Origin: a virus
Strand: one strand, 5' to 3'
Length of the DNA stretch: 64,000 bases
Virus record (IMG/VR): IMGVR_UViG_3300032249_000542
Location: 105,778-169,777 of that record
The translations under genes were made by a program, and so were the position numbers. Positions 44,687-62,975 of this stretch are shown here, piece after piece (within the stretch, counting starts at the first letter, position 1; the number at the start of each line of letters is the position of its first letter). Below the pieces are notes generated by a model. It was given only the letters and a program-made list of their open reading frames with translations, did not search any database and had not been told where the DNA came from.

Positions 44687-45913
44687 ATGAAATTTAATCA
44701 ATTCATAACAGAAGCAAAAGAAGATAAGAATGTTCATCTAGAACATATTGAAGATGAAATCATTAATCGTGGTGTTGCAGGTGCTCGTGATGCAGTAAAC
44801 TTCTTGCGTTCATTACGTGACATGCTTGCAGGTCACTCACAATCTAAAGTAAACGTAACAACAAAGTGGGATGGTGCTCCTGCAATCTTTGCTGGCATCA
44901 ATCCAGAAAATGGAAAGTTCTTTGTTGGCACTAAATCTGTATTCAATAAAAGTGCAAAACTAAACTACACCGATGAAGATATCGATGTGAATCACCCAGG
45001 TGAAGGTTTAAATGATAAACTAAAAGTCGCACTTGCCTTCCTTCCTAAACTTGGAATCAAAGGTGTACTGCAAGGTGACATGATGTTTGCAAAAGGCGAC
45101 ATACAAGAAAAAACAATTGATGGTGAAAATTACATAACATTCCAACCAAACACAATTGTTTATGCAGTCCCAGCAGAATCTAAACTCGCAAAGATTATGT
45201 TGGCAGCACAACTTGGTGTTGTATTCCATACTGCATACATAGGTAAGACACTTGAAACAATGAAAGCGTCATTTAACATTGACATCGGACATCTACAAAC
45301 AACAAAAGATGTTTGGTTTCGTGACGCATCTTTCACCGATGCATCTGGTTCTGTAACATTTACAATCGAAGAAACAAAAGCAATTACAACTATTCTATCA
45401 GATGCAGGTAGATCATTGGCAACTATTAATCCAATGACATTAAACAGAATTTCTGCAAGTGACGTTTATTCCACATATATCAAAACATTTAATAATACAA
45501 AGATTCGTGAAGGTAAGAAGATTACTAACACAAGAGAACATACTAGAGAATTGTTGGCGTGGATAGAAGCAAAACTAAACAAAGCGATACAAGAATCAAA
45601 AAGAGATGACACCAAACAAAAAAGAATCACAGAGAAAAATGAGATAATGCGTTTCTTTCGTGGTTCTGCAAATGATATCGTTTCGATGCTTGACTTTATG
45701 AACCATTTGGTGGATGCAAAACTAATGATAGTTCGCAAGTTAGAATCTATCCGTTCGATAGGTACATTCATTCGCACAGACGATGGTTACAGAGTAACTG
45801 CACCAGAAGGGTTCGTAGCAGTAGATAGATTACAAGGTAATGCAGTCAAGTTAATTGATAGACTTGAATTTGCACATGCCAACTTTAATGCAGCAAAGAA
45901 CTGGAGCAAGTAA
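44687..45913 (+). CDS. DUF6267-like protein with covalent nucleotidyltransferase (RNA ligase-like) motifs
   Basis: Motif I KWDG, III QGD, IV EGFV, V VKL; leader MKFNQFITE. Confidence 0.7.
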   Translation: MKFNQFITEAKEDKNVHLEHIEDEIINRGVAGARDAVNFLRSLRDMLAGHSQSKVNVTTKWDGAPAIFAGINPENGKFFVGTKSVFNKSAKLNYTDEDIDVNHPGEGLNDKLKVALAFLPKLGIKGVLQGDMMFAKGDIQEKTIDGENYITFQPNTIVYAVPAESKLAKIMLAAQLGVVFHTAYIGKTLETMKASFNIDIGHLQTTKDVWFRDASFTDASGSVTFTIEETKAITTILSDAGRSLATINPMTLNRISASDVYSTYIKTFNNTKIREGKKITNTREHTRELLAWIEAKLNKAIQESKRDDTKQKRITEKNEIMRFFRGSANDIVSMLDFMNHLVDAKLMIVRKLESIRSIGTFIRTDDGYRVTAPEGFVAVDRLQGNAVKLIDRLEFAHANFNAAKNWSK

Positions 45914-46185
45914 TGTCATACGATATAAACAAAATCATGGCAGAATATGGTGAAGAAGATTTTGGATTCACCGCAGTTGATGAAGCAGAATATGAAGCGG
46001 TAATAGCAGAGAAAAATGAAACGGTAGAAGAATACAAAGCAAGATTAACTCAGGTAGAAAAGATTATTATGCCTTTTCTAACCAATCTTTTAAAATCACA
46101 AGCACAACCTTACATTCATTGGCCCAATCGTGGTCCTATCATTGAGAAACAAATACAAAAGATCCTGACATTAACAAGAGGATAA
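45913..46185 (+). CDS. Conserved hypothetical protein
   Basis: DFGFTAVDE...PFLTNL...YIHWPNR; coupled. Confidence 0.7.
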   Translation: MSYDINKIMAEYGEEDFGFTAVDEAEYEAVIAEKNETVEEYKARLTQVEKIIMPFLTNLLKSQAQPYIHWPNRGPIIEKQIQKILTLTRG

Positions 46186-46193
46186 TAACAATA

Positions 46194-46937
46194 ATGCAAT
46201 CATTTGATAGTTTCCTGTACGAATCAAAAAGTAAAGACCTTGGTGGCTTGACAATCTTTGATATTGATGATACACTATTTCATACAACAGCACAGATTGC
46301 TGTAATGAAAGACGGTAAAAAGATAAAAGATTTAACTAACCAAGAGTACAACACCTATAAGTTAAAACAAGGTGAGTCTTACGATTACTCACAGTTTAGA
46401 GATTCGAAAAAGTTTAAAGAAGAATCTAAACCAATCGAGCGTATGTTGACAAAGGCAAAAGTTATTCTACGTAATGCTGAGTCAAATCCAAAAAGTAGAG
46501 TAATCATTGTAACTGCAAGAAGTGATTTCAATGATAAAGAAACTTTTCTTTCTACATTCAAAGACCATGGACTAGATATAGATAAGATTCGTGTTGAACG
46601 TGCTGGTAAGTTGGCAGGAAGTGTATCTGATCCTGCGACAGCAAAAGCAATCATCATCTATAACTATCTAAAGACTGGCCAGTTTGGTCGTGTTAGGTTG
46701 TTTGATGATAGTATGGCAAACCTAAGAGCATTTTTGAAATTGAAACAACACTTCAAAGATGTTACGTTTGAAGCATACTTTGCAAAACCAAATGGATCAA
46801 TACAAACAATAAAAGAAGAACAAGAGTTTGTTTCAAAGGCAGGTGCTGGTGAATGGGGTAGACCAGAACTTAGAGACAAATATGTTAAAGATACTCCTGG
46901 TCAAAGTAAGAAACTATATAAGAAGTATACGAATTAA
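46194..46937 (+). CDS. HAD-family phosphatase (Pnkp phosphatase/RNA-repair-like)
   Basis: IFDIDDTLF, VTAR, K, LFDDS; leader MQSFDSFLYE. Confidence 0.78.
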   Translation: MQSFDSFLYESKSKDLGGLTIFDIDDTLFHTTAQIAVMKDGKKIKDLTNQEYNTYKLKQGESYDYSQFRDSKKFKEESKPIERMLTKAKVILRNAESNPKSRVIIVTARSDFNDKETFLSTFKDHGLDIDKIRVERAGKLAGSVSDPATAKAIIIYNYLKTGQFGRVRLFDDSMANLRAFLKLKQHFKDVTFEAYFAKPNGSIQTIKEEQEFVSKAGAGEWGRPELRDKYVKDTPGQSKKLYKKYTN

Positions 46938-46956
46938 TTTTTAATATGGAGTGTTG

Positions 46957-47802
46957 ATGGATGATTTAATTATTGGATGTTCAACCAACTATGATTGGTC
47001 CAAGATAAAGTATTGGATTAACTCAGTCAATCAAAGTGGTTTCAAAGGCAAGAAAGTCATGATTCTTATGAATTGTGATGTTGAAACTGCTACTAAAGTT
47101 TTAAAAGCAGGATTTGAAATAATTTCATTTGGAACTGATGCGATGGGTAATCTCACGCATCAAAGTCCATTCATGGTTCATGTGGAACGATTCTTGCATA
47201 TCTATAATTATTTGAAAGATAATGAGTTTAGGTACGTTATAACTACGGATGTTAAGGATGTTATATTTCAAAAGAATCCATCTGAATGGTTAGAAGAATG
47301 GTTAGGAAATGAGTCCTTCGATGATGATTTAGTATTCTCATCTGAGAGTATATTATATAAAAATGAACCATGGGGTGATAACAATCTAATGGAAACATTT
47401 GGTCCATACATTCATAACATATTCAAAGAGAATGAGATTTATAATGTTGGTGTTCTTGCTGGCCGTGGTTATGCGATGCGAGACTTAGTATTGAATATCT
47501 TCTTGGCATGTGTTGGTAAACCAATTAAGATTTGTGACCAATCAACATTCAACTTCCTAATATCACAACATCCGTATCTGAAAACATCCAAGTATGCAAA
47601 ATCAGAAGATGGTTGGGCATGTCAGTTAGGTACAACTGTTGATCCAAGTAAAATAAACGAATTCAAACCATTCTTACTTGAACCATCACCAATAATGCAA
47701 GATGGTAAAGTCGTTACATCAACAGGAAAAGAATTTTCAATTGTTCACCAGTATGATAGAGTACCTGAGTGGAAAAATATTATAGAGGCAAAATATGAGT
47801 GA
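46957..47802 (+). CDS. Putative GT-A glycosyltransferase
   Basis: ITTDVKDVIFQKNP, NVGV, DQSTFN, IVHQYDR. Confidence 0.65.
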   Translation: MDDLIIGCSTNYDWSKIKYWINSVNQSGFKGKKVMILMNCDVETATKVLKAGFEIISFGTDAMGNLTHQSPFMVHVERFLHIYNYLKDNEFRYVITTDVKDVIFQKNPSEWLEEWLGNESFDDDLVFSSESILYKNEPWGDNNLMETFGPYIHNIFKENEIYNVGVLAGRGYAMRDLVLNIFLACVGKPIKICDQSTFNFLISQHPYLKTSKYAKSEDGWACQLGTTVDPSKINEFKPFLLEPSPIMQDGKVVTSTGKEFSIVHQYDRVPEWKNIIEAKYE

Positions 47803-48370
47803 TACATTTACAATAGACACCGTAGCACAAGCATTTGGTGGACAACAGCAACAACCACAATTTAAACCTGCGGGATATCATTTTGTTGAGTTTATGAAAC
47901 AAATGGAAAATCCTGTGGTATTAGAGATTGGGTGTGACATTGGAGACACATCACAACTACTATTGGACTGCAATGAAAGTTTAAAATTGTATGTCATTGA
48001 TCCATACGATGATTATGTTGATTGGAATGGTAACAACCTAAACGAAAGACAAAAACTTTACGAACAAGCAAGAGAACGATTTGCACCATATGGTGATAGA
48101 TTCAAACTGTATCGTTTGACATCCGATGATGCCGCAGATGAATTTGAAAAAGACTTCTTTGATTTAATATTCATCGATGGATTGCATACGTATGAACAAC
48201 TAACAAAAGATTGTGCGAACTATTACTCTAAACTAAAAACTGGTGGAATATTTGCTGGACATGATTACACAGTCATTGAAGGTGTTAATCGTGCAGTTAA
48301 TGAGTTTGCTGCGAAGCAAGAAAAAGAAATTCATCAAGGTGATTGTGATACATGGTTCTGGATCAAATGA
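47795..48370 (+). CDS. Class I SAM-dependent methyltransferase (Methyltransf_24-like)
   Basis: VLEIGCDIG, IDPY, IFIDGLHTYE, GGIFAGHDY. Confidence 0.9.
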   Translation: MSDTFTIDTVAQAFGGQQQQPQFKPAGYHFVEFMKQMENPVVLEIGCDIGDTSQLLLDCNESLKLYVIDPYDDYVDWNGNNLNERQKLYEQARERFAPYGDRFKLYRLTSDDAADEFEKDFFDLIFIDGLHTYEQLTKDCANYYSKLKTGGIFAGHDYTVIEGVNRAVNEFAAKQEKEIHQGDCDTWFWIK

Positions 48371-49056
48371 GAAACTGTATAGTTTTTTCTGGTCAGTTCC
48401 GTACTCTACGTGATACACTTCCAAGCATTAAAGAGTTTATTAGTGTTAATGCATTGGATGTGTATTGCCAACTATGGGGTGACAATCCAGATGAGAAACG
48501 ATTTATACTAGACCATCTAAAACCAAAAGACTATTGGTTTGATAAGTATACAGCACACAAAGATGTGTTTGATGGTATAGAAACTAGAGTTCGTGCAACG
48601 CATCCAAAGAATGCTCCTAACGATAAGATTGCTGGTAATGCATCAATGAACTATGCTAGAAAGATGGCATATAATTTGGTAAAAGAAAAGTATGATAACA
48701 TTATCTATTGCAGATACGACATAGAGTTTGTTCAACAATTTTTGGTAGAACAACAACCAGATGTTATTCTAACTCCTTTAGAAGAATCATACAATCTTAT
48801 CTCCGATATATTTGCAATCATACCAACGCAATATGCAAAGTCATATTTTCTTTATGATGAATATGAAAGATTACATTCAACACAATTTGAACCAGAGTTT
48901 GTAGATTGGTTGCGTGATATTAAAAAGTATGGTGATGATAATATCAACATACATATGTTTGAGAGATACTGTCCTCATATGATGTTGTTACGTAATCTAT
49001 TTACAGACAAAACTCCATTTGTAACAATGGACATACCCGTGAGATTAAAACGATGA
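48367..49056 (+). CDS. Putative glycosyltransferase-like protein
   Basis: CIVFSGQFR...YDNIIYCRYD...ISDIFA; paralog of the next gene. Confidence 0.55.
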   Translation: MRNCIVFSGQFRTLRDTLPSIKEFISVNALDVYCQLWGDNPDEKRFILDHLKPKDYWFDKYTAHKDVFDGIETRVRATHPKNAPNDKIAGNASMNYARKMAYNLVKEKYDNIIYCRYDIEFVQQFLVEQQPDVILTPLEESYNLISDIFAIIPTQYAKSYFLYDEYERLHSTQFEPEFVDWLRDIKKYGDDNINIHMFERYCPHMMLLRNLFTDKTPFVTMDIPVRLKR

Positions 49057-49769
49057 AAATTGCACTATGTCTATCTGGTCAAGCCAGATCATTCAAACAA
49101 GGATTCGAATATTACAAAAAGAATCTACTAGACCATTATGATGTTGATGTATTCATTCACACATGGGAGTTTGATGAATGGAAAGAATACGTAGACTTAT
49201 ATAATCCTGTAGAATTTAAAATGGATCAATCGGTTACTGTAGATTATGGTAAGACGATTGATGAGATGTATATAAGAACTCCTAACAAAGAAAAGTTTCC
49301 ACCACGTTTCACGTATGCGATGTTACATTCTATGGATACATGTGCTACTATGTTGTCAAAGCATGTATTCACCGCACACAAGAATTATGATTGGGTAATT
49401 CGTTCTAGAAGTGATTATGCATTGAATGTAAAGATTTCATTTGCAGAACTAGATAATTCAAAACTATACATTCCTAACTGTCGCATGGTACCAGAACGTG
49501 ACTTTGGTAATGACCAGTTTGCATTTTCATCTCTTAAAAATATGTTGAAGTATATGTCAACATATAGAATGATGGATCACTATTATACTGACCTTAATGC
49601 AACATACATTGGTGAAAATCTGATGCAAGCAAATTTACATCAGCACAGTTTACATGGAGAAAATCTTGTCTACGTTGACATGAATAATCCATTCCCGCCT
49701 GGAAAACATAATGGAACTTGGCACTCCCTCATTCGTGATGACTATGAACAATGGACGGAAAAATCTTAA
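49053..49769 (+). CDS. Putative glycosyltransferase-like protein
   Basis: MKIALCLSGQARS, DVFIHTW, YDWVIRSRSD, NDQFAF. Confidence 0.6.
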   Translation: MKIALCLSGQARSFKQGFEYYKKNLLDHYDVDVFIHTWEFDEWKEYVDLYNPVEFKMDQSVTVDYGKTIDEMYIRTPNKEKFPPRFTYAMLHSMDTCATMLSKHVFTAHKNYDWVIRSRSDYALNVKISFAELDNSKLYIPNCRMVPERDFGNDQFAFSSLKNMLKYMSTYRMMDHYYTDLNATYIGENLMQANLHQHSLHGENLVYVDMNNPFPPGKHNGTWHSLIRDDYEQWTEKS

Positions 49770-50500
49770 AAGAATTAAAAGGTCATTCAGGAAATAAAAT
49801 CTATCTATTAGAATCAGACAATCAATTCATTGTACACAAGTCTGGTGATGTAAAAAGAAACGTAGAGAGATTGCAAGATTTGTTTCGTGAATTCTATGAT
49901 GTACCTTTTATATTAAATACTGACGGTGAGACTTTTATGGATATGGAATATATTCATGGTCTCGATATGAAAGAGTATTTAAAAATGAATACCATCAATA
50001 AACTTGCTGGGTTCATCATTGAAACACTTAATAACTTTGCAAAAAGTTCGGTACTGTATGACTATACTGGTGTGTACCATCAAAAGTTGGATTGGGTAGA
50101 CTCTGCAACAGACCTACCTTTTTCCAAAGATGAGTTGATTACTCGATTACCTAAACAACTTCCACGATCACAATATCATGGTGACTTTACCTTAGAAAAT
50201 TTGATGTTTTCTGAAGATAAGTTTATAATGATAGATGCAGTCACGATTGAATATGATTCCTACATATTTGACATTGCAAAACTTCGGCAAGATTTAGAAT
50301 GTAAATGGTTCCTAAGAGACGATACGCTTAAACTAGACGTTAAGTTAAGAAATCTACAGGACAAAGTATTAGAAAGATTCCCACTTGCAAAGAATGATTA
50401 TATTTTGATTCTCATGTTGTTGCGAGTATATCGTCACACACAACCCGGTGATAGTAACCATCAATTTATTATGAAAGAGATTAACAGATTATGGAAATAA
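49751..50500 (+). CDS. APH/choline-kinase-like phosphotransferase
   Basis: GHSG loop, HGDFTLEN, MID, DIAKLRQD. Confidence 0.82.
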   Translation: MDGKILKELKGHSGNKIYLLESDNQFIVHKSGDVKRNVERLQDLFREFYDVPFILNTDGETFMDMEYIHGLDMKEYLKMNTINKLAGFIIETLNNFAKSSVLYDYTGVYHQKLDWVDSATDLPFSKDELITRLPKQLPRSQYHGDFTLENLMFSEDKFIMIDAVTIEYDSYIFDIAKLRQDLECKWFLRDDTLKLDVKLRNLQDKVLERFPLAKNDYILILMLLRVYRHTQPGDSNHQFIMKEINRLWK

Positions 50501-51516
50501 TTGTACCTGCGGCAGGAGCATCTACTAGATTCCCTGACATGAAACCAAAGTATTTGTTGTATGACTATGGTCATAAGATGATGATACAAAGAGCATTAGA
50601 ACCATATCAGGGTCACAACATTACGATTGGTATTCTCAAAGATCATGATGCTCACCATTCTGCATCTGATTATTTGAAACATGAATTCAAAGACACAGCA
50701 AAAATTTGTATCATGGACAAGATGACAAAAGGTCCTGCTGATACAGTCTATCAAATAATCAAGAGTTCAAATATTGATCCTGATGCAGAACTATTGATTA
50801 AAGATTGTGATAGTTTCTTTGACCATGAAATGTCAGAGGGTAATTATATTTGCGTATCAAACATTGCACAACATGAAGTATTAAAAAAACTATCTTCCAA
50901 GAGTTTTGTTATTGCGAACGAACAAGGTATCATTACAGATATCATTGAGAAGAATGTGGTGTCAGATACATTCTGCGTTGGTGGTTATAAATTCTCAAGT
51001 GTTAGATTGTTCTGTGAAGCATTTGAAGAACTAAAATTGCATAGTGAAATATTTGTTTCAGATGTCATTCAACGATGCTTGCACAAAGGTGAAATCTTTA
51101 CAGAAAAATTAGTATCAAACTACATTGACGTTGGTACTGCACAAGATTGGTTTGAATACAACGACAGACCAGTAATCTTTTGTGATATAGATGGTACACT
51201 AATTGAATCACAAGGTCGTGTTGGTGGTAAGAGTTTTGACTCACCAATCGTACCAATGCGAAAAACTCTAGATAAACTTTTAGAATATCAAAAGAATGGA
51301 GCACAGTTTGTATTCACAACAGCAAGACCAAAAGATGTAGAAGGAATAACTCATAGTATGTTAGGGTCACTTGGATTCCGTAACTTCGAATTGATTATGG
51401 GACTACAGAACTCAAGACGCATATTAATTAATGACTTCAACAATTCAAATCCATATCCTCGTGCTACTGCAATTAATGTAGAGAGAGACAAAGACCAAGT
51501 GGCGAATTATCTATGA
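50491..51516 (+). CDS. Sugar-phosphate nucleotidyltransferase-like domain fused to HAD phosphatase
   Basis: IIVPAAGASTRF...PK, KDCD, DVGT; then FCDIDGTL, TTAR, IND. Confidence 0.82.
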   Translation: MEIIVPAAGASTRFPDMKPKYLLYDYGHKMMIQRALEPYQGHNITIGILKDHDAHHSASDYLKHEFKDTAKICIMDKMTKGPADTVYQIIKSSNIDPDAELLIKDCDSFFDHEMSEGNYICVSNIAQHEVLKKLSSKSFVIANEQGIITDIIEKNVVSDTFCVGGYKFSSVRLFCEAFEELKLHSEIFVSDVIQRCLHKGEIFTEKLVSNYIDVGTAQDWFEYNDRPVIFCDIDGTLIESQGRVGGKSFDSPIVPMRKTLDKLLEYQKNGAQFVFTTARPKDVEGITHSMLGSLGFRNFELIMGLQNSRRILINDFNNSNPYPRATAINVERDKDQVANYL

Positions 51517-52208
51517 AACCAAATAGACCTTTATTCATTATAACATCAGCACTCAGACCAACGATGGGTGTGTTCTCATTCAAAGAACGATACGACCAAA
51601 CGATAAAAACTATTAAATCCATTAGAAGTAAATGTCCTAATGCATACATTCTATTTGCAGATGCATCTATTGGTGATGTTCCTGCTGTTGAATTTATGAT
51701 TATATCCAAGATGGTTAACTTCTTTATGAAAATGAATGAGAAGTATAACCGAGATGTTATAGAGTTGAGTAAAGCAAAGTTGAAAAGTCAAGCTGAGACT
51801 GCATTACTGTATCACATACTTGTAATGATGAAACGTGATCCTAATCTACAGAAAGCATTGTATTCAACCAATCGCATATTCAAGATTAGTGGTAGATTAG
51901 AATTGGATATGGACTTTGATCTTAAAGAATATGACGAATTGTTTGGAAAGTATGTGTTCAGAAAACGTATTCCAACATGGATGAATCCACCTAAAGTGAG
52001 TGATTTATTCGTCACCAGATTGTACTCTTTCTGTCCATCCCTTATCGATGACTATATTGGTGTACTGCAACGCAACTTTCAAATGTTAAATGACGTTGAC
52101 ACAGAACATGCACATTTTGCGAATATTGACCCAAAATACTTGGTAGAATTCGAAAAAGTTCATTGTAAAGGGCAAGTTGCATCTACCGGAGAGTGGCACT
52201 ACGATTAA
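51513..52208 (+). CDS. Hypothetical protein of the glycan cluster
   Basis: FIITSA, ERYDQT, IFKISGR, TRLYSF, DTEH; coupled. Confidence 0.55.
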   Translation: MKPNRPLFIITSALRPTMGVFSFKERYDQTIKTIKSIRSKCPNAYILFADASIGDVPAVEFMIISKMVNFFMKMNEKYNRDVIELSKAKLKSQAETALLYHILVMMKRDPNLQKALYSTNRIFKISGRLELDMDFDLKEYDELFGKYVFRKRIPTWMNPPKVSDLFVTRLYSFCPSLIDDYIGVLQRNFQMLNDVDTEHAHFANIDPKYLVEFEKVHCKGQVASTGEWHYD

Positions 52209-52213
52209 AAAAG

Positions 52214-52221
52214 ACTAAATA
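52214..52221 (+). promoter_or_regulatory. Late promoter (ACTAAATA)
   Basis: Intergenic, upstream of the capsid-targeted gene block. Confidence 0.55.
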
Positions 52222-53834: not shown

Positions 53835-54037
53835 AAAATTTAAAACAACACATCAGCGATTTACACGGTAAATCCTTAAAACACGGAATTACAGGTCATG
53901 AATTCACTCTAAAAAAAGATGGACCTAATGAGTATGATATTTACAAAGGTAATAAGTTCATAGGTTCCATTAATGGTAAAAGTGAAGAAGCCGTTTTACA
54001 TGTCCTACAGCAAAAAGGATATGAAATCAATGACTAA
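53831..54037 (+). CDS. Small hypothetical protein
   Basis: Coupled ORF, leader MKNLKQHISD. Confidence 0.6.
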   Translation: MKNLKQHISDLHGKSLKHGITGHEFTLKKDGPNEYDIYKGNKFIGSINGKSEEAVLHVLQQKGYEIND

Positions 54038-55973
54038 CTTATTCTTAGAACAGTATAATTTAATTACAGAAAAACAAGCTGGGGCTGCAACGTCTAGTGC
54101 TAATGCATTGGCAACACATAGATCAAATGTGAACGAATATTTGTTGGCTCAAGAATTAGCAAAAATAGCAGGTCATAAAGATATTCGTCCGGGTGAGTCA
54201 GAAGAAGAAAAACGACAAGCTAAAGCTAAACATGATACGTCAAAACTTTTGTTAGACAAAACTGAGTATGGCCATCAATCGGAACGTGCTAAACATATGG
54301 CACAAGCTGCATATAAAACGTATAAAAAAAGAGGTATAGATTTAAAGAAAGCTACTAGTTTTCACGTTAGTGCTACTGGTGGTGCTATTGGTAAGCTTAC
54401 TGGTTCAGAAGTCAAAAGTTCTGAAAATACTTCCGATGTTGTTGCAAAAATTCCTGGTAAAAAGGGATCTCCAGCAAAGTTTCCTGGAATTTCAGCAAAA
54501 TCAAATATAAAAAGTACAGAAGCTGGTGGAGAAAGATTTTCTAATATATTTCTAAGTAGTATTTCAAACTCACTTGGAGTAGATTGGCATGATCGTGCTA
54601 ATAAAGCCATGGACAAATTCGCTAAGAGAAAAGGAATAGGTCATTTACCTTTATCAAGTGTAAAAGAAGAAGGTGGTAGAAAAGAATGGTTAAGAAAAAA
54701 ACAGAATTCTAGACATTTAGCGGAAGCTGAAGAAGAAGGAAACAAATTAAGAACTGGTATACGTAATGATTATATGAAACATATTAATCAACACGGTTCT
54801 GATCCAGAAAATAAAGAAGGTGTTGAAAGAATTAGAAATCATCTTTTGAATCAGCATTTTAGATCAAATGCTAGTGAACATGAATCGACTCCGTTTATTG
54901 TGGTTTCTGGTCATGGAACAAGTAAGGATGAAAATAGTAAAAATGCTTACGCTGCTCACGCACATTTTATGGATGAACATCCTCATGTCGAAGCTGTTAA
55001 GAAGGCAACACATTTTACCAGTACAGCAGCAAAAGGCAAAGACGGTCAAGGTGGATTTGGTTTAAATGTTTATGCTCATACGCATGAACATCCAAACGGA
55101 GTTCATGTAATGAAAGTAGATACTAAGTGGAATTCACAGGGAATGGCTAGCGGAATTAAAGCAGTTGGCACCGAAGGTTCTTTAAAACCAAAACCAACTG
55201 ATGTTGCAAGAAAACCAGTTGCAAATAAACCTGCTGTGAAAAAAGCTGTTGTAAATAAACCTGTTGTGAGAAAAAGAATCGTTGAGGGTTATGAATTTTC
55301 TGGTGACGATGCATTTCAAATGCTTTCACTTGGAACTGGAATGGATGAAATAGACTTAAATGAAAATCACAAAAACTATCTAAAAGATAGTAAAGGTAAT
55401 GTACGAATTTTCGTAATCAGAGGAGCTGCTGCAAAAGAAGCTCACGTAAAAGGTGGTACAGTAGTTCCATATGGTAAAGGATATGCCGTTTTATTAGAGG
55501 AGAAACAAAATGATTATCACGTTTTTGAAAAATTTATTAAATCCCAAAGTGCAGATCACAGAGGACAAGAAACATCCATTAGAAGCTCCTTCCTTGTTGA
55601 ATCAGCCAAAAGAGAAAGTGTTACCAATAGCGGAATTGAAGCAAGAGAAACCAGTCAGCAAAGCAATGCAGAACGCAAAAAAACGATCACCCTCAAAGAA
55701 ATCCGTGAAAAACAACTTTCAAAAGAAACAGAAAAAGTAATGTTATCTGAGGCAGGAATAAATGATGGAGAGTCTGGTCTTTCAATGGCAACGTCTGGTG
55801 AGAACATGGGTAGAGATTCTACTAGAGTAAAAATTCTAAAGAGACCGTTGGAAAGATCATTGGAGGAATTAACTGGTGATGAAACAACTGCATCTATTGG
55901 CGATCAAAAAGAAGATGAGTTGAAGAAAAAAGGTATATCACTAACATCATTTAAAAAGAGAAATTACATATGA
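54030..55973 (+). CDS. Mosaic putative internal head protein with a PD-(D/E)xK-like nuclease domain
   Basis: Leader MTNLFLEQYNLITE; NE...SDVV...GISAK; repeated (I/L/V)xE sites in the C-terminal third. Confidence 0.55.
   Translation: MTNLFLEQYNLITEKQAGAATSSANALATHRSNVNEYLLAQELAKIAGHKDIRPGESEEEKRQAKAKHDTSKLLLDKTEYGHQSERAKHMAQAAYKTYKKRGIDLKKATSFHVSATGGAIGKLTGSEVKSSENTSDVVAKIPGKKGSPAKFPGISAKSNIKSTEAGGERFSNIFLSSISNSLGVDWHDRANKAMDKFAKRKGIGHLPLSSVKEEGGRKEWLRKKQNSRHLAEAEEEGNKLRTGIRNDYMKHINQHGSDPENKEGVERIRNHLLNQHFRSNASEHESTPFIVVSGHGTSKDENSKNAYAAHAHFMDEHPHVEAVKKATHFTSTAAKGKDGQGGFGLNVYAHTHEHPNGVHVMKVDTKWNSQGMASGIKAVGTEGSLKPKPTDVARKPVANKPAVKKAVVNKPVVRKRIVEGYEFSGDDAFQMLSLGTGMDEIDLNENHKNYLKDSKGNVRIFVIRGAAAKEAHVKGGTVVPYGKGYAVLLEEKQNDYHVFEKFIKSQSADHRGQETSIRSSFLVESAKRESVTNSGIEARETSQQSNAERKKTITLKEIREKQLSKETEKVMLSEAGINDGESGLSMATSGENMGRDSTRVKILKRPLERSLEELTGDETTASIGDQKEDELKKKGISLTSFKKRNYI
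55510..55740 (+). CDS. Candidate overprinted Lys/Pro-rich protein
   Basis: Strong GAGGAG RBS 7 nt before ATG; MIITFLKNLL amphipathic start, basic tail. Confidence 0.45.
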   Translation: MIITFLKNLLNPKVQITEDKKHPLEAPSLLNQPKEKVLPIAELKQEKPVSKAMQNAKKRSPSKKSVKNNFQKKQKK

Positions 55974-56374
55974 AAAATTTAAAAACATTTCTACAAGATT
56001 TAGATGAAGCAGGACGTTGTTGGAAAGGTTACAAACCAACTCCAGGTAAAAAAGCGTATTCCGATGATTCTTGCATGAAAGAAGAAATCGAACTTGACGA
56101 AGGTGAAGCATGGACACGCAAAGAAGGTCAGTCTGAGGCTGGTGGTTTGAATCGTAAAGGTATCGCTTCTTATCGTGCTGCAAACCCTGGGTCAAAGCTA
56201 TCCATGGCAGTAACAACTAAACCATCTAAACTTGATCCAGACTCTAAAGCAGCAAAAAGAAGAAAATCATTCTGCGCCAGAATGGGTGGAATGAAGAAAA
56301 GATTAACTTCAGCAGAGACGGCACGTGATCCAGATTCACGTATTAACAAAGCATTGAGAAAGTGGAATTGCTAA
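55970..56374 (+). CDS. DUF6321-like conserved phage protein
   Basis: AWTRKEG...GGLN...RRKSFCARM...SRINKALRKWNC; CWKGY module. Confidence 0.7.
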   Translation: MKNLKTFLQDLDEAGRCWKGYKPTPGKKAYSDDSCMKEEIELDEGEAWTRKEGQSEAGGLNRKGIASYRAANPGSKLSMAVTTKPSKLDPDSKAAKRRKSFCARMGGMKKRLTSAETARDPDSRINKALRKWNC

Positions 56375-57628
56375 ATGGCACAGTGGAAAGCAGATACACA
56401 AACATTTGACCAACTCATATCACGTAGATATGAAGTAATGATGTTGGCTAACAATGCCAACGGTGACATCGTGTCTACTGCTAATCCATTACCAGTAACA
56501 TTAGGTTCAGAGAATATTACAATTACTGGTAATGTGAATTTTGTTGATACAGTTAATGTTGCTAGTTCACCAGAGAATCCAGTTCATACTCATATTACAG
56601 AAGTTGGAACAAGTGGGTTATTAAATATACCTTATCTTCCAATTGGTGGTAATGTCAATGTGACGAATATTGTTGCAGTCACAGGAAATGTAACAACAAA
56701 CGGAACAATAAACATTGGAAACTTTCCATCAGTACAGACAGTAAATGGCACAATAAACATTGGTAATAGCGTTCAAGTTAATGTTACTAATTTTCCAGTT
56801 ACACAAAATGTAACCATTATGAAGAACGGTCTGGCTGTCAGCGACACAGTAGGTCTTCCAACTCGTGTTATCAATGATGAAGCATTGATATCCTATGCCC
56901 GTGGTAAGCCTGTAACAGAAGCAGATGTATTAAATGCTTATTTGATTGACAAAAGTGGTGCCACAGAAACCTTAGGTGTATCATCCAATACTATGAGCAC
57001 GGTGTGGGGAGGAACCGGATTGTATCCATGGACTACCTTCACAGGTACCGGTGATAAAATATACATTAAATCTGTCACCAACGATCCTAAAGTTCAAGGT
57101 AAGAGTGTGACCATTGAAGGCTTAGACAGTAACTACGACATCTTGATAGAAACAGTCACCTTACATCCAACTGACACCACAACACCTGTAAGCACAGTCA
57201 ATAACTTTTACAGAACTAATAAAATGTATTTGACTGGTAACAATACCAACTCTTTACCACACGATTACAATATTGAACTTAGATATGGTAGTAGCAGTGG
57301 TACGATTATTGGTCAATTTAATGCTCCTTGGGGTCGCGGTCAAAACTGTTTTTATACTGTGCCCCGTGGCTATGAAGGATTTGTATTGAGCATCAATGGT
57401 AATAGTGGTAAGATGGATGAAATCACCAGTTCATTGTGGTTTCATCCCTATGGTGGCACCTGGACACTACAAAAAAGTTTTAAGTTTATTTCAGGAACAT
57501 TCGACCACAACTTTAGAACACCATTGCGTATAACAGAAAAATCAGACATTGAGATTCGTGCGTTTGCTTTAGTTGAATCCAGTCGTATTGGCACAGAGTT
57601 CCAGATGTTAGTTCTACCTAAGGCGTAA
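56375..57628 (+). CDS. Putative virion structural protein
   Basis: N/V/T-rich beta repeats (VNVTN, GTINIGN); late region. Confidence 0.6.
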   Translation: MAQWKADTQTFDQLISRRYEVMMLANNANGDIVSTANPLPVTLGSENITITGNVNFVDTVNVASSPENPVHTHITEVGTSGLLNIPYLPIGGNVNVTNIVAVTGNVTTNGTINIGNFPSVQTVNGTINIGNSVQVNVTNFPVTQNVTIMKNGLAVSDTVGLPTRVINDEALISYARGKPVTEADVLNAYLIDKSGATETLGVSSNTMSTVWGGTGLYPWTTFTGTGDKIYIKSVTNDPKVQGKSVTIEGLDSNYDILIETVTLHPTDTTTPVSTVNNFYRTNKMYLTGNNTNSLPHDYNIELRYGSSSGTIIGQFNAPWGRGQNCFYTVPRGYEGFVLSINGNSGKMDEITSSLWFHPYGGTWTLQKSFKFISGTFDHNFRTPLRITEKSDIEIRAFALVESSRIGTEFQMLVLPKA

Positions 57629-57631
57629 GAT

Positions 57632-58288
57632 ATGGCACAGTTTAATAAAGACTCACAAACCTATGTTGACGGACGTAGAGTCCTACACGATATTCAAATG
57701 ATTGCCAACAAGAATGGCGATATCGTTACCACAGACAATCCTTTTCCTGTTACTGGTGTATTTTATCCAGAAACACATAAACCAGGTCTACATTATTCGT
57801 TCAACAATCATGCAATAAATGTTCGTAGAGGTTGGACGATAGAATCAGATGCAATGGTACCAATGATGAGTATTCGTTGCAAGTCTAACATAAGTGCTAG
57901 TGCCCTTAGTGAGTTAGAAGATTATGAATTAGGAAACAATAACGCAACCTCAAGTACAATTGTTTATGAATGGTGGTTAGGTTCTTTAACATTTGGTGGA
58001 GCAGCAGTTCCAGCATTTACATCAGTAGGTACAAGATTAGAATACAGGTTCTATACGGATTGGTTTGGTAATCAAAATGGATCTACCGTGACTAGTTTTG
58101 CTGGTTGCACAATGATTCATTCAGGAATCATTATTGGTCGCACACAAGGTGGGGATAGTGTTCATACTGCATTGAATGGAACAGGAACAGCCACGGCAGG
58201 TACTTTGCTTACACTCATGGCAAAAAGAGTTGATAGTAGCACCAAATTAGATTTATGGGGCACATTTAACTTAATAGAATTCACTTAA
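57632..58288 (+). CDS. Putative virion structural protein (N-terminal paralog of the previous gene)
   Basis: Shared MAQ..D.QT...M.AN.NGDIV.T.NP.PVT N-terminus. Confidence 0.6.
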   Translation: MAQFNKDSQTYVDGRRVLHDIQMIANKNGDIVTTDNPFPVTGVFYPETHKPGLHYSFNNHAINVRRGWTIESDAMVPMMSIRCKSNISASALSELEDYELGNNNATSSTIVYEWWLGSLTFGGAAVPAFTSVGTRLEYRFYTDWFGNQNGSTVTSFAGCTMIHSGIIIGRTQGGDSVHTALNGTGTATAGTLLTLMAKRVDSSTKLDLWGTFNLIEFT

Positions 58289-58314
58289 ATTTACTAAAAA
58301 CTAATAGGAAAAAA

Positions 58315-59838
58315 ATGAAACCTTTAAACGAAAAAGAGTATCAAGATAGGCCAGAAGATTATAAAGCTAATGATCCAAAAATGCTTAACAAATTGAATGA
58401 TCCAGAGACTGGTCTTAAAGCTGTGCAAGCAGCACAAAACGATGCAATAGCTACACGAATGGCAAAAGACACGGCAAGTTCTTTTGGTAAATCACCACCA
58501 AAACCCATACCATACATGCCACCGTATAAAAGAATAAATCAACAATCAATCAGCGGTCCTGTGACCAAAGCTAACGAGGAGAACACAATGTCACTTATTC
58601 ACGACAAAAAAACAATGAGTGTAGCAGATGCAGTATATAAGATTATGGAAGCAGAAAAGATGGCAAACAAAGATCACGATCAAGATGGTAAGATTGAGAG
58701 TGGTAAAGATGAATATCTTGGTTCACGTATTCGTGCTGCTAAAGCAGCAGGGAAACTGAAAGAAGAACTAAAAGGTAATCAACATAAAATTGATGCCAAC
58801 AAAAATGGTAAAATTGATGCTCACGATTTCAAACTTTTACGTGGTAAAAAAACCATGAAAGAAGAAGAACAAATTGATGAAGGTGGTATGCCATCAAGTG
58901 TTATCAAGCACAAGCAGTCATTGGCTTCTAAATCACCTGAAGAACTTCATGCTGGATTTAAAGAAGTTGCGAAAAGAATGGGTAAATCTATAGAACACGT
59001 AGCAAGAAGTACCGCTTGGAGTCATGGATATGGTAAAGGTCAAGGTCAAGGTAGTTCTCACTATTATGATAAAATCAAACATCTAGGAGAATCATTTGAA
59101 CTAGATGAAGCATTCCCAACAGTAGCAGATGGCGAAAAAAGTCTACGTGCCAAAGAAGGTAAGACTTCAATGGGTACAGTATCTAAAACTAAAACTGGTT
59201 TAGTTCATACCCGTGATTATGAAGATGATTCAGACGATACTCCTGCAAAGAAGGGACGTCCTACAGGTGGTGGCGCAGGTAAGTCTACAAAGAAAAAGAA
59301 ACTAACAGAAATGATTGCTGCATATAAAGAAAAAGGAATCGATTCTTTGTATGAAGAACCAGATAACGCAACTTTTACAAAAGAGTTGGAAGATCAAAAA
59401 GCAAAGTTTGATGGTAAGAAAAAAGGTGGAGATGTTGCAAAGCCATCAGTACAAGCAGTAAAGGTAGAACAATACGAAGAAGATGATGGTCCATTGTCAG
59501 AAGAACAGTTAGATGAATTGAGTAAATCAACTGTTAAATCCTATGTCATGAAAAAAATGGACAAAATGAGTGATGAACCAGTTTCAAAAAATCAATATGG
59601 ATATGCCAAAAAAGATGTTAAGGGTATGACAAATGCATATAATCGTTTGAAGGGTTACAAACCAACATCAGAAGAAGTTGAACTTGAAGAACGTACATTA
59701 ACACCTGCTGAAACTAAAGAAAAAGAAAAGAATGTAAAAGGTATGAAGAAAAAACTTTCTGGTTTTAAAGAGCGTTATGGTGATCGTGCAAAAGAAGTAA
59801 TGTATGCAACAGCAACTAAAATGGCTAAAAAGGATTAA
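58315..59838 (+). CDS. Putative internal head polyprotein
   Basis: Basic modules separated by KEE/(I/L)DE sites; EF-hand-like DANKNGKIDAHD; C-terminal KEVMYATATKMAK. Confidence 0.62.
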   Translation: MKPLNEKEYQDRPEDYKANDPKMLNKLNDPETGLKAVQAAQNDAIATRMAKDTASSFGKSPPKPIPYMPPYKRINQQSISGPVTKANEENTMSLIHDKKTMSVADAVYKIMEAEKMANKDHDQDGKIESGKDEYLGSRIRAAKAAGKLKEELKGNQHKIDANKNGKIDAHDFKLLRGKKTMKEEEQIDEGGMPSSVIKHKQSLASKSPEELHAGFKEVAKRMGKSIEHVARSTAWSHGYGKGQGQGSSHYYDKIKHLGESFELDEAFPTVADGEKSLRAKEGKTSMGTVSKTKTGLVHTRDYEDDSDDTPAKKGRPTGGGAGKSTKKKKLTEMIAAYKEKGIDSLYEEPDNATFTKELEDQKAKFDGKKKGGDVAKPSVQAVKVEQYEEDDGPLSEEQLDELSKSTVKSYVMKKMDKMSDEPVSKNQYGYAKKDVKGMTNAYNRLKGYKPTSEEVELEERTLTPAETKEKEKNVKGMKKKLSGFKERYGDRAKEVMYATATKMAKKD

Positions 59839-59840
59839 TC

Positions 59841-61031
59841 ATGGCTACCGGCAAAATTAAAGTCAACTTCAAGATGCCAACACCATCTGCTGCTGACAGG
59901 ATGTATGCCAAGCATCAAATAATCAGGAAGGCTGCTGGTCTTCCTGATGTTGACAACAATCCTGACAGACCAGATGCTGGTAAATATAGTTCTGGTTCAT
60001 CAAAACCAGTCAAACGTGTAACTCCTGTTGCAACACCAAGTGTTAATGAATCAGATATTACGGTAGTTAAGAAAGGTACTGGTATAAAGAAGAAAATTTC
60101 TGACATATCGTATGATGTATTCAAGTCACATGGTTTTGTTAAAGAAGAAGAAGTTGTAGTGGAGATGGACAATCGTACATCAAGGGATGACAGTATAGAA
60201 CGACGTAAATATAGTCCAGAAGGAATGGCAAGACAAGATAAAGAACAACAAAAACGCTTAAAAGATATTAGTGCTGAGATGCGTAAAAAATTACGATTAC
60301 CAGAACCAAAAAAAGTTGAAGAAAGTTTCAGAATTGGTGGTATGGCTAGTGGTGGTCGTGGAAACATTCACATGTATGACAGAAACCCTGGACCAAGAGA
60401 TGATGAGTCAGATCACGTTCCTTACGTTCCTAAGACGGATAAAGATAAAAAATTAGCGGCTGCTTTAACGGACGTTGGTAAGACGTTTCCTAAATCAATA
60501 ACTGCTCGTCCTAAGTATCCAAAACTAAAAGAAGCAAAAGATTCTCAAGAGTATGATTATGAAGGCGACATGGCTAAATCGGATTTGCGTTCGATTATTC
60601 ATAATGCACAAACTCTCCATGACATGATAGATGATGACACAAATCTTGCAGAGTGGTGTCAATCAAAGATTACTCTTGCTGAAGATTACATTTCTACTGT
60701 TACCAACTACATGCGTTCAGAAATGAAAGAAGAAGTTCAGTTGGATGAGAAAAAGAAACTTCCTGGTCTATGGGCAAACATTCATGCTAAACGCAAACGT
60801 GGAGAACCTCCTGCAAAACCAGGAGACAAAGATTATCCAAAGACTCTGAATATAGAAGGTGTTCAAGATGATCCAAAAGCAGATCAAATGACTACTGATG
60901 ATACAAAGTTTCCAAAGAAATCTCGCAAAGCATCAATTGTTAAAGCTGCAGCGAAAAAGATGCCATCTGAGGATCAGTTTCAAGATAAACCAGTCTTAGA
61001 TTCACAGGTAGCTCAACAAACGAATAAATAG
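59841..61031 (+). CDS. Putative internal head polyprotein
   Basis: EYDYEGDMAK...EWCQSKITLAEDY and GLWANIHAKRKRGE modules with xKE/xDE linkers. Confidence 0.62.
   Translation: MATGKIKVNFKMPTPSAADRMYAKHQIIRKAAGLPDVDNNPDRPDAGKYSSGSSKPVKRVTPVATPSVNESDITVVKKGTGIKKKISDISYDVFKSHGFVKEEEVVVEMDNRTSRDDSIERRKYSPEGMARQDKEQQKRLKDISAEMRKKLRLPEPKKVEESFRIGGMASGGRGNIHMYDRNPGPRDDESDHVPYVPKTDKDKKLAAALTDVGKTFPKSITARPKYPKLKEAKDSQEYDYEGDMAKSDLRSIIHNAQTLHDMIDDDTNLAEWCQSKITLAEDYISTVTNYMRSEMKEEVQLDEKKKLPGLWANIHAKRKRGEPPAKPGDKDYPKTLNIEGVQDDPKADQMTTDDTKFPKKSRKASIVKAAAKKMPSEDQFQDKPVLDSQVAQQTNK
61023..61030 (+). promoter_or_regulatory. Late promoter (AATAAATA)
   Basis: Tandem TAAATA cores before an AGGAG RBS. Confidence 0.55.
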
Positions 61032-61058
61032 TAAATAACTCATTTTAGGAGAAAACAA

Positions 61059-61640
61059 ATGGCTTTATGGGGAAATCTAGATGCATCTAACAATGCACCT
61101 GTTTTTGCTGATACTGGTGGTTACGGCGTTACTGCTAACACCCAGGACGCAACAATTTTTGGTAATGTAACTATCGGTGCTACACGTGCCGATGTAGCAA
61201 TGGGTATGTTTGGTGTTGACACAATAGAAGAAGCGGTAACAACTGGTGACGGTTCTAAAGCTACACACACTGGTTGGGTACTACGTACTGCGTACACAGG
61301 ACCAGTAGTTTCAATTACTGCAAATGCTGGTGCTGTTGGTACAAACAGTTATATTACATTTACTGGTGGTTCATCTGGTGCTGCAGATGGAAAAACAGGT
61401 AACACTTCAGCAAACGCAATCGTTTCTGTTAATTCAACAGGACACATTGTCTCTGTTACCGTGCTATCTGGTGGCGAATATGCAAATACACCAGTAGCTA
61501 CACCAGCAGCAGGTAACGCAGCATTTACATTAACAATGGGTGGTCGTGCTAACCGTGTATTCCAAGAAACATTAGTTGCTATGGGATCTATCTACGGTGA
61601 CGCACCAGCAGCAGAAGATACTAACTATCCTGACGCATAA
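61059..61640 (+). CDS. Virion structural protein (MALWG type)
   Basis: MALWG, MFGVD, HTGWV, GGRANRVFQETLVAM. Confidence 0.7.
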   Translation: MALWGNLDASNNAPVFADTGGYGVTANTQDATIFGNVTIGATRADVAMGMFGVDTIEEAVTTGDGSKATHTGWVLRTAYTGPVVSITANAGAVGTNSYITFTGGSSGAADGKTGNTSANAIVSVNSTGHIVSVTVLSGGEYANTPVATPAAGNAAFTLTMGGRANRVFQETLVAMGSIYGDAPAAEDTNYPDA

Positions 61641-61921
61641 TGAATTTTGGTGGCTTTATTAGTTTGGACGGTCAGTCAAATGATCGTCCAAATTATCCAG
61701 ATCAACTGTTAGTTGTTTTATCTGATTACGGTATAGATATATCGCAGATGAATGATTTAGATCCACTTGAAGATGAGGGGATTGTAGAGTTGCATCCTGG
61801 GAAATATTTGTATTTTGTGTATGCTAAAAACGATGATGGTAGTTATGATTTTCATTCTGAAGTAACCGATGAAGATGGATTGGAAGACATACTATCAGAC
61901 GAGGAAGAAGATAACGATTAA
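61640..61921 (+). CDS. Acidic hypothetical protein
   Basis: Coupled ORF. Confidence 0.55.
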   Translation: MNFGGFISLDGQSNDRPNYPDQLLVVLSDYGIDISQMNDLDPLEDEGIVELHPGKYLYFVYAKNDDGSYDFHSEVTDEDGLEDILSDEEEDND

Positions 61922-62313
61922 TGTCCTTTGATAATTTGACTGATGATAATGTCATGTTGTACGCAATTAAAGCATATGACAAACCAAACTGTATTATGAG
62001 TGAATTCTCAGAGGACATGAAACGATTTAATTACCTTAAACGATTATTTCGTAGGTATCGTAAACACAATGAGTTGCGTGAACGACTTATATTAAATCAT
62101 TTGGTCGTATTGAATAATGTATTTGGAGTAGAAGTTACCACTAGATTGTTGTTTTATGAAATGAGTCCAAACGACTACCCTCAATTAAAAACTTATTTGC
62201 TTTTTTTAAGTTGTATGCCAGATGTAATAGTTGGTATTAAAGGTAATAATATTTTGTCATCAAGTATAGAAGTTAATATGGAAATAGCAAACGTATTGAG
62301 AACCCTAAAATGA
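61921..62313 (+). CDS. Conserved T4-like hypothetical protein
   Basis: YAIKAYDKPNC...EF.EDMKRFNYLKRL...ERLILNHL. Confidence 0.75.
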   Translation: MSFDNLTDDNVMLYAIKAYDKPNCIMSEFSEDMKRFNYLKRLFRRYRKHNELRERLILNHLVVLNNVFGVEVTTRLLFYEMSPNDYPQLKTYLLFLSCMPDVIVGIKGNNILSSSIEVNMEIANVLRTLK

Positions 62314-62975
62314 TAAAAGAATCCAACGAACTAAGCCAATCATGTGGTGCAGGAATGTATTGGTGCAACACCGACAAAAAATGTAAGCCTATGCCTAAAG
62401 AAGATGCACCAACCATGTCAGCTGGTAGTGGTGCTGTTGCGGGTATTGGTGTTGGCGCACAAGGAGAACCGGGTTTCAAGAAAAGAAAGATAGTACCGCT
62501 CATCTCTTTCATTAGGCGAGGACAAAAGACATCAATTAAAGAATCAGTTGTATACAAAGAACCAGATCATAGTAGACTCTCAGATGAGGAGCATGGTGAA
62601 AATACGCATCAAAGTAATGCAATGAAGTCTGGACAAATGGATGATGTTCATCCTGCAATAGCGTCTGCAATTCATAAATTTTCGAAAGATAAAAAGTCGT
62701 TTACTGCTGCTTTATCCTCATCAAAAATTGAGAAAATAAAACCTGGAACAAATGTTGGTAATTCAGAAATTGGGCAAGGGGTAGATGCAGTTGAGAATAA
62801 AGATAAAGTAAATAGAGTAAAATCCCAAATGAAACCTGGAGGTGGTGGGATAGATAGACCAATAGTTCTTAGACATACTGACAAACAGGGACAAACACAT
62901 CATCATCTCTTAGCGGGTAATACTAGAGCAACTACAGTTGGTTATGGTGTTGAGGCGCATCACATTGATGTGTAA
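62310..62975 (+). CDS. Modular protein with a C-terminal ParB/Srx-like domain
   Basis: CGAGMYWC module, EDAPTMSAGSGAVAG module, then RPIVL...LLAGNTRA. Confidence 0.5.
   Translation: MIKESNELSQSCGAGMYWCNTDKKCKPMPKEDAPTMSAGSGAVAGIGVGAQGEPGFKKRKIVPLISFIRRGQKTSIKESVVYKEPDHSRLSDEEHGENTHQSNAMKSGQMDDVHPAIASAIHKFSKDKKSFTAALSSSKIEKIKPGTNVGNSEIGQGVDAVENKDKVNRVKSQMKPGGGGIDRPIVLRHTDKQGQTHHHLLAGNTRATTVGYGVEAHHIDV

Follow-up and report, generated by a model that had tools for sequence, protein, structure and literature searches.

Leaders resembling the T4 capsid targeting sequence mark a probable virion-borne enzyme set in an aquatic T4-like phage

The last 64,000 nucleotides (positions 105,778 to 169,777, hereafter the window) of the virus record IMGVR_UViG_3300032249_000542, a complete genome of 169,777 bp with terminal repeats, encode four proteins of unrelated folds that begin with one type of N-terminal leader of 9–13 residues. 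This leader is a close copy of the capsid targeting sequence (CTS) with which phage T4 loads proteins into its head, so the phage probably ships ready-made enzymes inside its virion. The leaders are likely to be T4-type CTSs that work as follows. Transcription from a late promoter would supply the tagged proteins during prohead assembly, the aromatic residues of the leader would dock them onto the gp22 scaffolding core, and the head protease gp21 would cut after the (I/L)-x-Glu at the end of the leader; the mature basic proteins would then stay in the head beside the DNA and would probably exit from it upon infection. The tagged set comprises a predicted ligase-type DUF6267 protein, a HAD phosphatase, a nucleotidyltransferase-kinase and a small basic DUF6321 protein:

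44687–45913, plus strand: DUF6267 protein, 408 amino acids (aa), isoelectric point (pI) 9.0 (Pfam DUF6267, 3e-116)
46194–46937, plus strand: HAD-type phosphatase, 247 aa, pI 9.4 (DxDxT motif)
52251–53834, plus strand: nucleotidyltransferase-kinase, 527 aa (PHROG cytidyltransferase, 1e-64; Pfam Zeta_toxin and AAA_33)
55970–56374, plus strand: small basic DUF6321 protein, 134 aa, pI 9.7 (Pfam DUF6321, 1e-16)

The source of the record is a T4-like myovirus whose nearest cultured relatives are Methylophilales phage Melnitz, Pelagibacter phages Mosig and HTVC008M, and the cyanomyoviruses. It is a Kyanoviridae-like aquatic phage, distant from the T-even phages, and all long open frames of the window lie on the plus strand.

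Likeness of the leaders to the T4 capsid targeting sequence

The leader MKTYQEFIAE of T4 IPIII has been dissected by mutagenesis, in which residues 4 and 7 were assigned to targeting and residues 8 and 10 to processing (PMC9026906). The T4 sequences that we fetched for IPII and IPIII both begin with MKTYQEFIAE/A, where the slash, here and below, marks the known or predicted cut. In the window, the DUF6267 protein begins with MKFNQFITE/A (codons 1–9, 44687–44713), the phosphatase with MQSFDSFLYE/S (codons 1–10, 46194–46223) and the nucleotidyltransferase-kinase with MNFIDFLTE/Q (codons 1–9, 52251–52277), while the DUF6321 protein has a leader of 13 residues, MKNLKTFLQDLDE/A (55970–56008), and its relatives carry the canonical MKSFNKFLDE/A. 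The two targeting positions are F and F in the first three proteins and L and F in the DUF6321 protein, orthologues of which have F and F; the processing sites read ITE/A, LYE/S, LTE/Q and LDE/A, respectively. In phosphatase orthologues with the leader MKTFQEFLTE/R, seven of the ten residues are identical to the T4 leader. The match to the T4-type leader that was proposed in the initial annotation is therefore upheld, in that the experimentally defined T4 determinants are kept and both a gp21 protease and a gp22 scaffold are encoded.

As in T4, the tag covers about ten N-terminal residues of the form M-K-x-aromatic-x-x-aromatic-(I/L)-x-E followed by a small residue, has its determinants at the identical positions 4, 7, 8 and 10, is found on otherwise unrelated basic proteins (pI 8.5–9.7, like T4 internal proteins), and belongs to genes outside the head gene cluster of a phage that encodes gp21 and the gp22 core. 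The cargo differs, since the tagged enzymes are large (28–59 kDa), whereas T4 tags small inhibitor or DNA-binding proteins; moreover, many leaders in this phage group are one residue shorter, and the cleavage and ejection proposed here are predictions. In addition, the system recalls T4 Alt, a packaged and injected ADP-ribosyltransferase, which is an enzyme of the prohead core that is trimmed by gp21, delivered with the DNA and active at time zero. Alt is a single enzyme acting on host RNA polymerase, whereas several enzymes of an apparent end-repair pathway are tagged here, and these have no sequence relation to Alt.

Specificity of the leader within the genome

The initial annotation had listed six N-termini of this kind, all of which are present in the sequence at their positions. 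Under a loose rule, an (I/L)xE tripeptide within the first 16 residues, 29 of 211 genes qualified against 19 expected, which was judged not special. Because this rule gave no enrichment, it was replaced by a strict pattern derived from T4 and by a matrix trained on foreign sequences. The strict pattern, fixed beforehand from the T4 mutagenesis, demands that leader positions 4 and 7 be aromatic, that position 8 be I/L/M/V and position 10 Glu, and that the leader end by residue 15. Three N-termini in the whole 169.8-kb genome fit it (44687, 46194 and 52251), whereas the rate at internal positions predicts 0.22. The position matrix was trained solely on 79 leaders of the DUF6267 family from other organisms and applied to the 229 N-termini of the genome, among which the four highest scores belong to the DUF6267 protein (22.1), the nucleotidyltransferase-kinase (17.7), the phosphatase (12.2) and the DUF6321 protein (9.7), each score being reached by at most 0.0004 of null blocks. 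The two other listed N-termini, those of gene 54030 (MTNLFLEQYNLITE/K, 0.4) and gene 10738 (MKSLLEFKSITE/E, 1.5–3.5), scored at background, as did the extra candidate 45913 (−2.0). Pattern scans of whole genomes at the DNA level returned the same few genes, and reversed-pattern controls yielded almost nothing. The list of six leaders is thus borne out for 44687, 46194, 52251 and 55970, which stand far above chance by matrix or strict pattern, and not for 54030 and 10738. When N-termini were scanned genome-wide against gene class, the leader was found on no replication gene.

A resemblance by chance or composition could be expected from MK-rich and A-rich starts, an AT-rich genome and the commonness of (I/L)xE tripeptides, and it finds some support in the unenriched loose rule and in the two listed leaders at background. 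It is contradicted by the strict-pattern count, by the small null fractions of the four proteins, by the nearly empty controls of the DNA scans and by the conservation of the motif across orthologues, where conservative replacements (F/Y, I/L) are made while the remaining positions vary. Chance is refuted for four of the six proteins and stands for 54030 and 10738; as an account of the leader in general, it is very improbable.

An 89-aa open reading frame (ORF) of the early region (G000:C1, 24327–24596, outside the window) starts with MNHKQFDLE/Q and has a matrix score of 9.5, level with the DUF6321 protein. From its N-terminal sequence, it might be a fifth cargo protein.

Link between the leader and the head protease

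The machinery for packaging of the CTS type is present, as the genes for gp20, gp21 (S77), gp22 and gp23 are all encoded in a T4-like head module of the window:

9116–10528, plus strand: portal protein gp20 (Pfam/PHROG)
10550 (start), plus strand: small gp67-like core protein (Pfam/PHROG)
10738–11511, plus strand: 257-aa protein in the prohead-core cluster between the gp20 and gp21 genes, with an N-terminus outside the leader model
11508–11933, plus strand: gp67-like prohead core protein (PHROG 1064 'prohead')
12297–12947, plus strand: gp21-type prohead protease (Peptidase_S77, PF03420, 7e-36), N-terminus MKLITE/Q
12984–14051, plus strand: gp22-type scaffolding core protein (Pfam T4_CASP, PF25623, 1e-64)
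14070–15410, plus strand: gp23 major capsid protein (Pfam Gp23, 5e-142)

The matrix trained on DUF6267 leaders gives the T4 targeting sequence a score of 12.7 and the T4 gp23 cleavage site, the experimentally known cut at the propeptide end FGSFLTE/A, a score of 14.9. When about 48,000 internal positions of the proteome were scanned, the second-best match was found at residue 52 of gp23 (EGQILTE/ASPT), which predicts a maturation cut after Glu52 (codon 14223–14225), where the end of the propeptide is expected. The fourth-best internal match lies in the gp67-like core protein 11508, after residue 21 (FKELVYE/Q). Because the matrix recovers the cleavage sites expected in gp23 and the gp67-like protein, the C-terminal half of the leader corresponds to the predicted gp21 site of this phage.

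Conservation and modularity of the leader

Among 80 related IMG/VR contigs, ORFs with the strict leader were counted 76 times for DUF6267, 26 for the nucleotidyltransferase-kinase, 13 for the phosphatase and 11 for DUF6321, where several ORFs per locus are possible; the only other carrier in these contigs is a variable gene just upstream of DUF6267, in a few cases. The wider DUF6267 family, with about 2,700 sequence clusters at 50% identity, was surveyed through 150 representatives of 2,733 clusters, which gave 137 distinct N-terminal segments. In 114 of these, an (I/L/M/V)xE stands before the catalytic core, with Glu most commonly at residue 9 or 10. The surrounding leader residues are F at P7 (60%), F/Y at P4 (65%), L/I at P3 (93%) and A/S/G at P1' (69%).

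The DUF6267 protein exists in two forms of about 80% identity, one with the leader and one starting with MATK... exactly at the predicted cut. The DNA upstream of the leaderless form is homologous to that of the leader form and has no in-frame start, so that the difference amounts to a clean indel of codons 2–8. In the AlphaFold models of the DUF6267 protein and the nucleotidyltransferase-kinase, the leader is the sole N-terminal part with a predicted local distance difference test (pLDDT) score below 50. With one leader type on four unrelated folds, the leader is a transferable module separate from the fold of its cargo.

Four of the DUF6267 representatives (P0179, P0208, P0222 and P0237) are fusion proteins in which a leader-type (I/L/M)xE site immediately precedes the DUF6267 core, as in KTFTDFITE/QKNTHMTH. 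These sites suggest that long DUF6267 fusions may be polyproteins, from which the head protease would release the individual enzymes.

Tagged orthologues in the virions of relatives

In purified virions of cyanophage S-SM1, a 'putative citidylyltransferase (T4-GC190)' was reported as unexpected (Sullivan et al. 2010, PMC3037559), and in Supplementary Table 8 of that study its peptide count is 25, with 18 for the portal protein, 25 for gp6 and 8 for gp21. This enzyme begins with MKKFSAFLNE/A, the only perfect 10-residue leader in the 174-kb genome of S-SM1, and its core is 41% identical to residues 17–201 of the 52251 protein. Similarly, mass spectrometry of CsCl-purified particles of cyanophage S-SZBM1 identified 30 proteins, among which the only enzyme is the cytidylyltransferase, with 2 peptides (PMC9146016); its N-terminus is MRFRQFIIE/A. 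The virion cytidylyltransferase of cyanomyoviruses (T4-GC190) is orthologous to the N-terminal domain of 52251 at 39–42% identity, and the leader is common to both. The cyanophage enzymes have no kinase domain, whereas 52251 has one, and their DUF6267 neighbours have no leader. In both S-SM1 and S-SZBM1, the adjacent leaderless DUF6267 protein is not listed in purified virions, and the S-PM2 cytidylyltransferase, which lacks a canonical leader, is missing from the proteins detected in virions. Absence from purified virions had been named in the initial annotation as evidence against packaging; judged by proxy, the outcome favours packaging, since a leader-bearing cytidylyltransferase orthologue is found in the virions of two cyanophages.

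A further connection concerns the DUF6321 domain of 55970, which is 59% identical to part of the P-SSM4 protein PSSM4_160 (T4-GC119), a cluster that was detected in S-SM1 virions. The N-terminus of the protein encoded at 62310–62975 (CGAGMYWCNTDKKCKP) matches the N-terminus of PSSM4_160, the C-terminal part of which is the DUF6321 domain. The phage seems to carry the two ends of a PSSM4_160-type virion protein as separate genes (62310 and 55970), 6 kb apart.

The nucleotidyltransferase of phage PA5oct has no leader and does not bear the mark of proteins detected by mass spectrometry, which is consistent but uninformative. Neither PMC3037559 nor PMC9146016 mentions the leader or a reason for the enzyme in the virion. 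Our literature search found no description of T4-type leaders outside the T-even phages and none linking such leaders to the virion cytidylyltransferase; a search for 'capsid targeting sequence' with cyanophage returned only a T4 review.

Gene order and expression signals

The leader genes had been placed in a late region by the initial annotation, which is not where they are: they sit in the replication module, downstream of the genes for DNA polymerase (36080), UvsX (39495) and the gp41 helicase (40820), although the operon of DUF6267 and the phosphatase has a late-promoter motif of its own. The same gene order is found in Melnitz, HTVC008M, S-CAM4, P-SSM4, S-SM1 and S-SZBM1. The signal in question is as follows:

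43569–43576, plus strand: T4-type late-promoter motif TATAAATA, 25 nt upstream of gene 43601

This gene is the first of a tightly packed operon that continues with DUF6267, 45913 and the phosphatase. The motif occurs twice in the window, the other copy lying 26 nt before gp22, and ATAAATA at 5–45 nt ahead of a start is, genome-wide, a mark of genes for tail, baseplate and head. In relatives, one late-promoter motif is found at the equivalent place. A scan for promoters and terminators between 42 and 58.5 kb gave counts not above those in shuffled sequence.

A near-consensus promoter of the sigma-70 type (TTGACA, 17 nt, TAATAT; 43543–43576) overlaps the late-promoter motif before gene 43601. 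Given these overlapping signals, the operon may be transcribed in the early as well as the late phase.

Weighing of the packaging interpretation

Several observations weigh against packaging by the leader. The cytidylyltransferase of Syn9 carries the leader MKKFSAFLSE/A and was not detected in the Syn9 proteome; this non-detection counts weakly because about ten T4 core structural proteins escaped the same survey. Two S-SM1 virion proteins from the same neighbourhood, T4-GC1453 and T4-GC1454, are without the canonical leader, so that the leader is not the sole route into the particle. The virion proteomes compared come from other phages, in none of which the leader is carried by DUF6267, the phosphatase or the kinase. 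In the leaderless DUF6267 clade, the late-promoter motif is kept directly before DUF6267, which means that late expression alone does not imply packaging. Lastly, a Glu-less leader remnant persists in a Straboviridae vibriophage and on the nucleotidyltransferase of HTVC008M, and the leader segment could therefore have another role.

Such a role could be that of a docking or assembly tag for a partner outside the capsid, for example one gathering ligase, phosphatase and kinase in a cytoplasmic repair or replication complex. The location of the genes in the replication module and the Glu-less remnants of some relatives would suit this role, as would the fact that the tagged enzymes form one plausible pathway; fusions of the nucleotidyltransferase to DUF6267 exist, indicating that these two are functionally linked. 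Nevertheless, a non-capsid tag leaves unexplained the near-identity to the T4 targeting sequence, the recovery of the gp23 and gp67-like cleavage sites by the matrix and the leader-bearing cytidylyltransferase in purified virions of two phages, and the unrelated small basic DUF6321 protein is tagged too. We regard it as unlikely.

The leader might also be merely a propeptide that gp21 can remove, keeping the enzymes inactive or marking turnover until late infection, with no useful retention in the head or injection. Two observations agree with this proposal: in its C-terminal half, the leader is identical to the consensus of gp21 sites, and the copy number in cyanophage proteomes appears low, as indicated by the 2 peptides in S-SZBM1. 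On the other hand, gp21 of T4 works within the prohead, which requires that anything it cuts be located in the core (PMC9026906); the aromatic positions 4 and 7, which serve targeting and not cutting in T4, are the best conserved after Glu; and the S-SM1 enzyme has a higher peptide count than the portal protein. A removable propeptide alone is thus quite improbable, and loading of the tagged proteins into the head by a T4-type CTS remains the favoured explanation.

Predicted activities of the cargo enzymes

The DUF6267 protein had been called a ligase-fold enzyme, with which our results agree. Ligase motifs I, IV and V are recognizable as K60-x-D62-G63, E374-G375 and K388, at least 90% conserved in 59 diverse sequences. 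The AF2 model has a pLDDT of 89, with residues 1–11 below 50, and a wide VIA search with it gave the Naegleria nick-sealing ligase (5cot, Z 9.0), REL1 (7.9), Trl1 (7.8), T4 Rnl2 (7.7) and T4 Rnl1 (7.4), ahead of DNA ligases (5.7–6.6), all of these values being moderate. Foldseek gave no significant match to the same model, and the ligase resemblance comes only from the wide VIA search. On this modelled structure, the DUF6267 body appears to be a polynucleotide-ligase-type nucleotidyltransferase, with RNA ligases nearest. It is the sole ligase-like gene of the genome, in which the Pfam ligase models PF01068, PF09414 and PF01653 found no match anywhere.

The phosphatase assignment likewise stands, as the HAD DxDxT motif is present in 46194 (F22-D23-I24-D25-D26-T27) and is invariant in the alignment save for position 26 (D/E). 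In the aligned leaders, M1 and E10 alone are invariant, with F/Y at positions 4 and 7 and I/L at 8, and a linker of variable length follows before the DxDxT motif. The sole family match is a weak one to PHROG 415 polynucleotide kinase (3.7e-4). The C-terminal tail of the phosphatase, GAGEWGRPELRDKY.KDTPGQ (46840–46937), is conserved even in a relative with only 43% identity, and inserts of variable length part it from the HAD domain.

In 52251, a nucleotidyltransferase of the HIGH type with an invariant T26-x-G28-H29 is joined to an equally invariant P-loop (G228-P-G-S-G-K234) of a kinase, in agreement with the nucleotidyltransferase-kinase of the initial annotation, and leader residues 2–10 have a pLDDT below 50 in the model. 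Foldseek matched the model to ATP sulfurylase-APS kinase and NadR at 1e-7 to 1e-5, with a TM of about 0.2–0.3 over the whole protein, and the second domain to adenylate kinase and polynucleotide kinase. Searches of solved-structure sequences with single sequences or profiles of the DUF6267 protein, the nucleotidyltransferase-kinase and the phosphatase gave no useful match, and no published description of DUF6267 or DUF6321 was found in the literature.

Possible function of the payload

The classical heal-and-seal set of RNA repair, known from T4 Pnkp with Rnl1 and from fungal Trl1, consists of a ligase, a P-loop kinase and a HAD phosphatase. As the DUF6267 protein has ligase motifs and RNA ligases are its nearest structures, an RNA end-repair kit is the likeliest payload. 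The predicted K-x-D-G ligase, P-loop kinase and HAD-type phosphatase resemble T4 Pnkp/Rnl1 and fungal and plant Trl1, which mend tRNAs broken by anticodon nucleases. In T4, Pnkp and Rnl1 are synthesized once infection has begun and do not belong to the virion, unlike the packaged set proposed here, in which, moreover, a HIGH-type nucleotidyltransferase is fused to the kinase and the activities are predicted.

A serious alternative for the payload is that DUF6267 is the missing replicative DNA ligase and 52251 a NadR-like enzyme of NAD salvage, making up a set for replication or nucleotide metabolism, packaged or not. The complete genome is without another ligase, the DUF6267 gene lies among replication genes, and NadR is among the top fold matches of the two-domain enzyme, all of which favour this assignment, while the structural ranking of RNA ligases before DNA ligases and the composition of the classical end-healing and sealing set argue against it. 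We consider it possible but the less expected function. The broader proposal, that T4-like aquatic phages load and inject a complete RNA end-repair set (ligase, kinase, phosphatase and nucleotidyltransferase) that would counter host anticodon nucleases or other RNA-cutting abortive infection ahead of phage gene expression, is tentative, as are the injection and the counter-defence role put forward in the initial annotation.

Neighbouring genes

Two further genes of the locus have N-termini outside the leader model:

45913–46185, plus strand: acidic protein, 90 aa, between DUF6267 and the phosphatase, conserved in 79 loci
54030–55973, plus strand: basic protein, 647 aa, with only a weak leader candidate at background

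The N-terminus of the 45913 protein follows the conserved form M.YDI.KI(L/M)AE/Y. The start codon of 54030 is uncertain because the open frame begins at 53973. Its product had been proposed as a nuclease-like cargo protein, a claim that is not sustained, since the leader scores at background and the nuclease assignment is weak: the N-terminal domain has a weak resemblance to restriction endonucleases of the HaeIII/MspI type. The C-terminal 200 aa are homologous to the tail of longer nucleotidyltransferase-kinases of relatives (730–910 aa, e.g., L076:17757–20102), and it looks as if this tail had moved to the separate gene 54030 under a new restriction-endonuclease-like N-terminal domain.

The slot upstream of DUF6267 is occupied by different genes in different phages. 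Gene 43601, which fills it here, was considered as a paralogue of the 54030 N-terminal domain or an orthologue of the leader-bearing Melnitz gene 15, and no similarity to either was found. Directly upstream of the late promoter, gene 42444–43559 has a Pfam match (1e-9) to the family of DruA, a protein of Druantia defence, and a gene of this family is kept at the equivalent position in relatives.

Between the phosphatase and the nucleotidyltransferase-kinase lies an island of seven leaderless genes (46951–52208) that is not found in Melnitz or HTVC008M. Four of its genes have family matches (a methyltransferase, DUF7796, an APH-type kinase and a HAD hydrolase), and a fifth is borderline glycosyltransferase-like, so the island looks like a module for the modification of sugars or small molecules. 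Pfam searches of this island and of the genes at 56375–62975 revealed no leaders and no connection to the leader-bearing set.

Significance

To our knowledge, packaged protein sets are almost unknown beyond the T-even phages and a few jumbo phages, since the majority of aquatic phages are not amenable to the cultivation that proteomics requires. Virion-borne proteins are at work ahead of phage gene expression and therefore decide the first minutes against host defences. If the leaders are indeed T4-type CTSs, the presence of a 'cytidylyltransferase' in purified cyanophage particles, a puzzle of more than 15 years, would be explained, a new kind of payload consisting of nucleic-acid repair enzymes would be added to those known, and the DUF6267 family would gain a function as a ligase. 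Moreover, as the leader is recognizable in the sequence itself, genomes alone could then suffice to predict which proteins thousands of uncultured T4-like phages inject.

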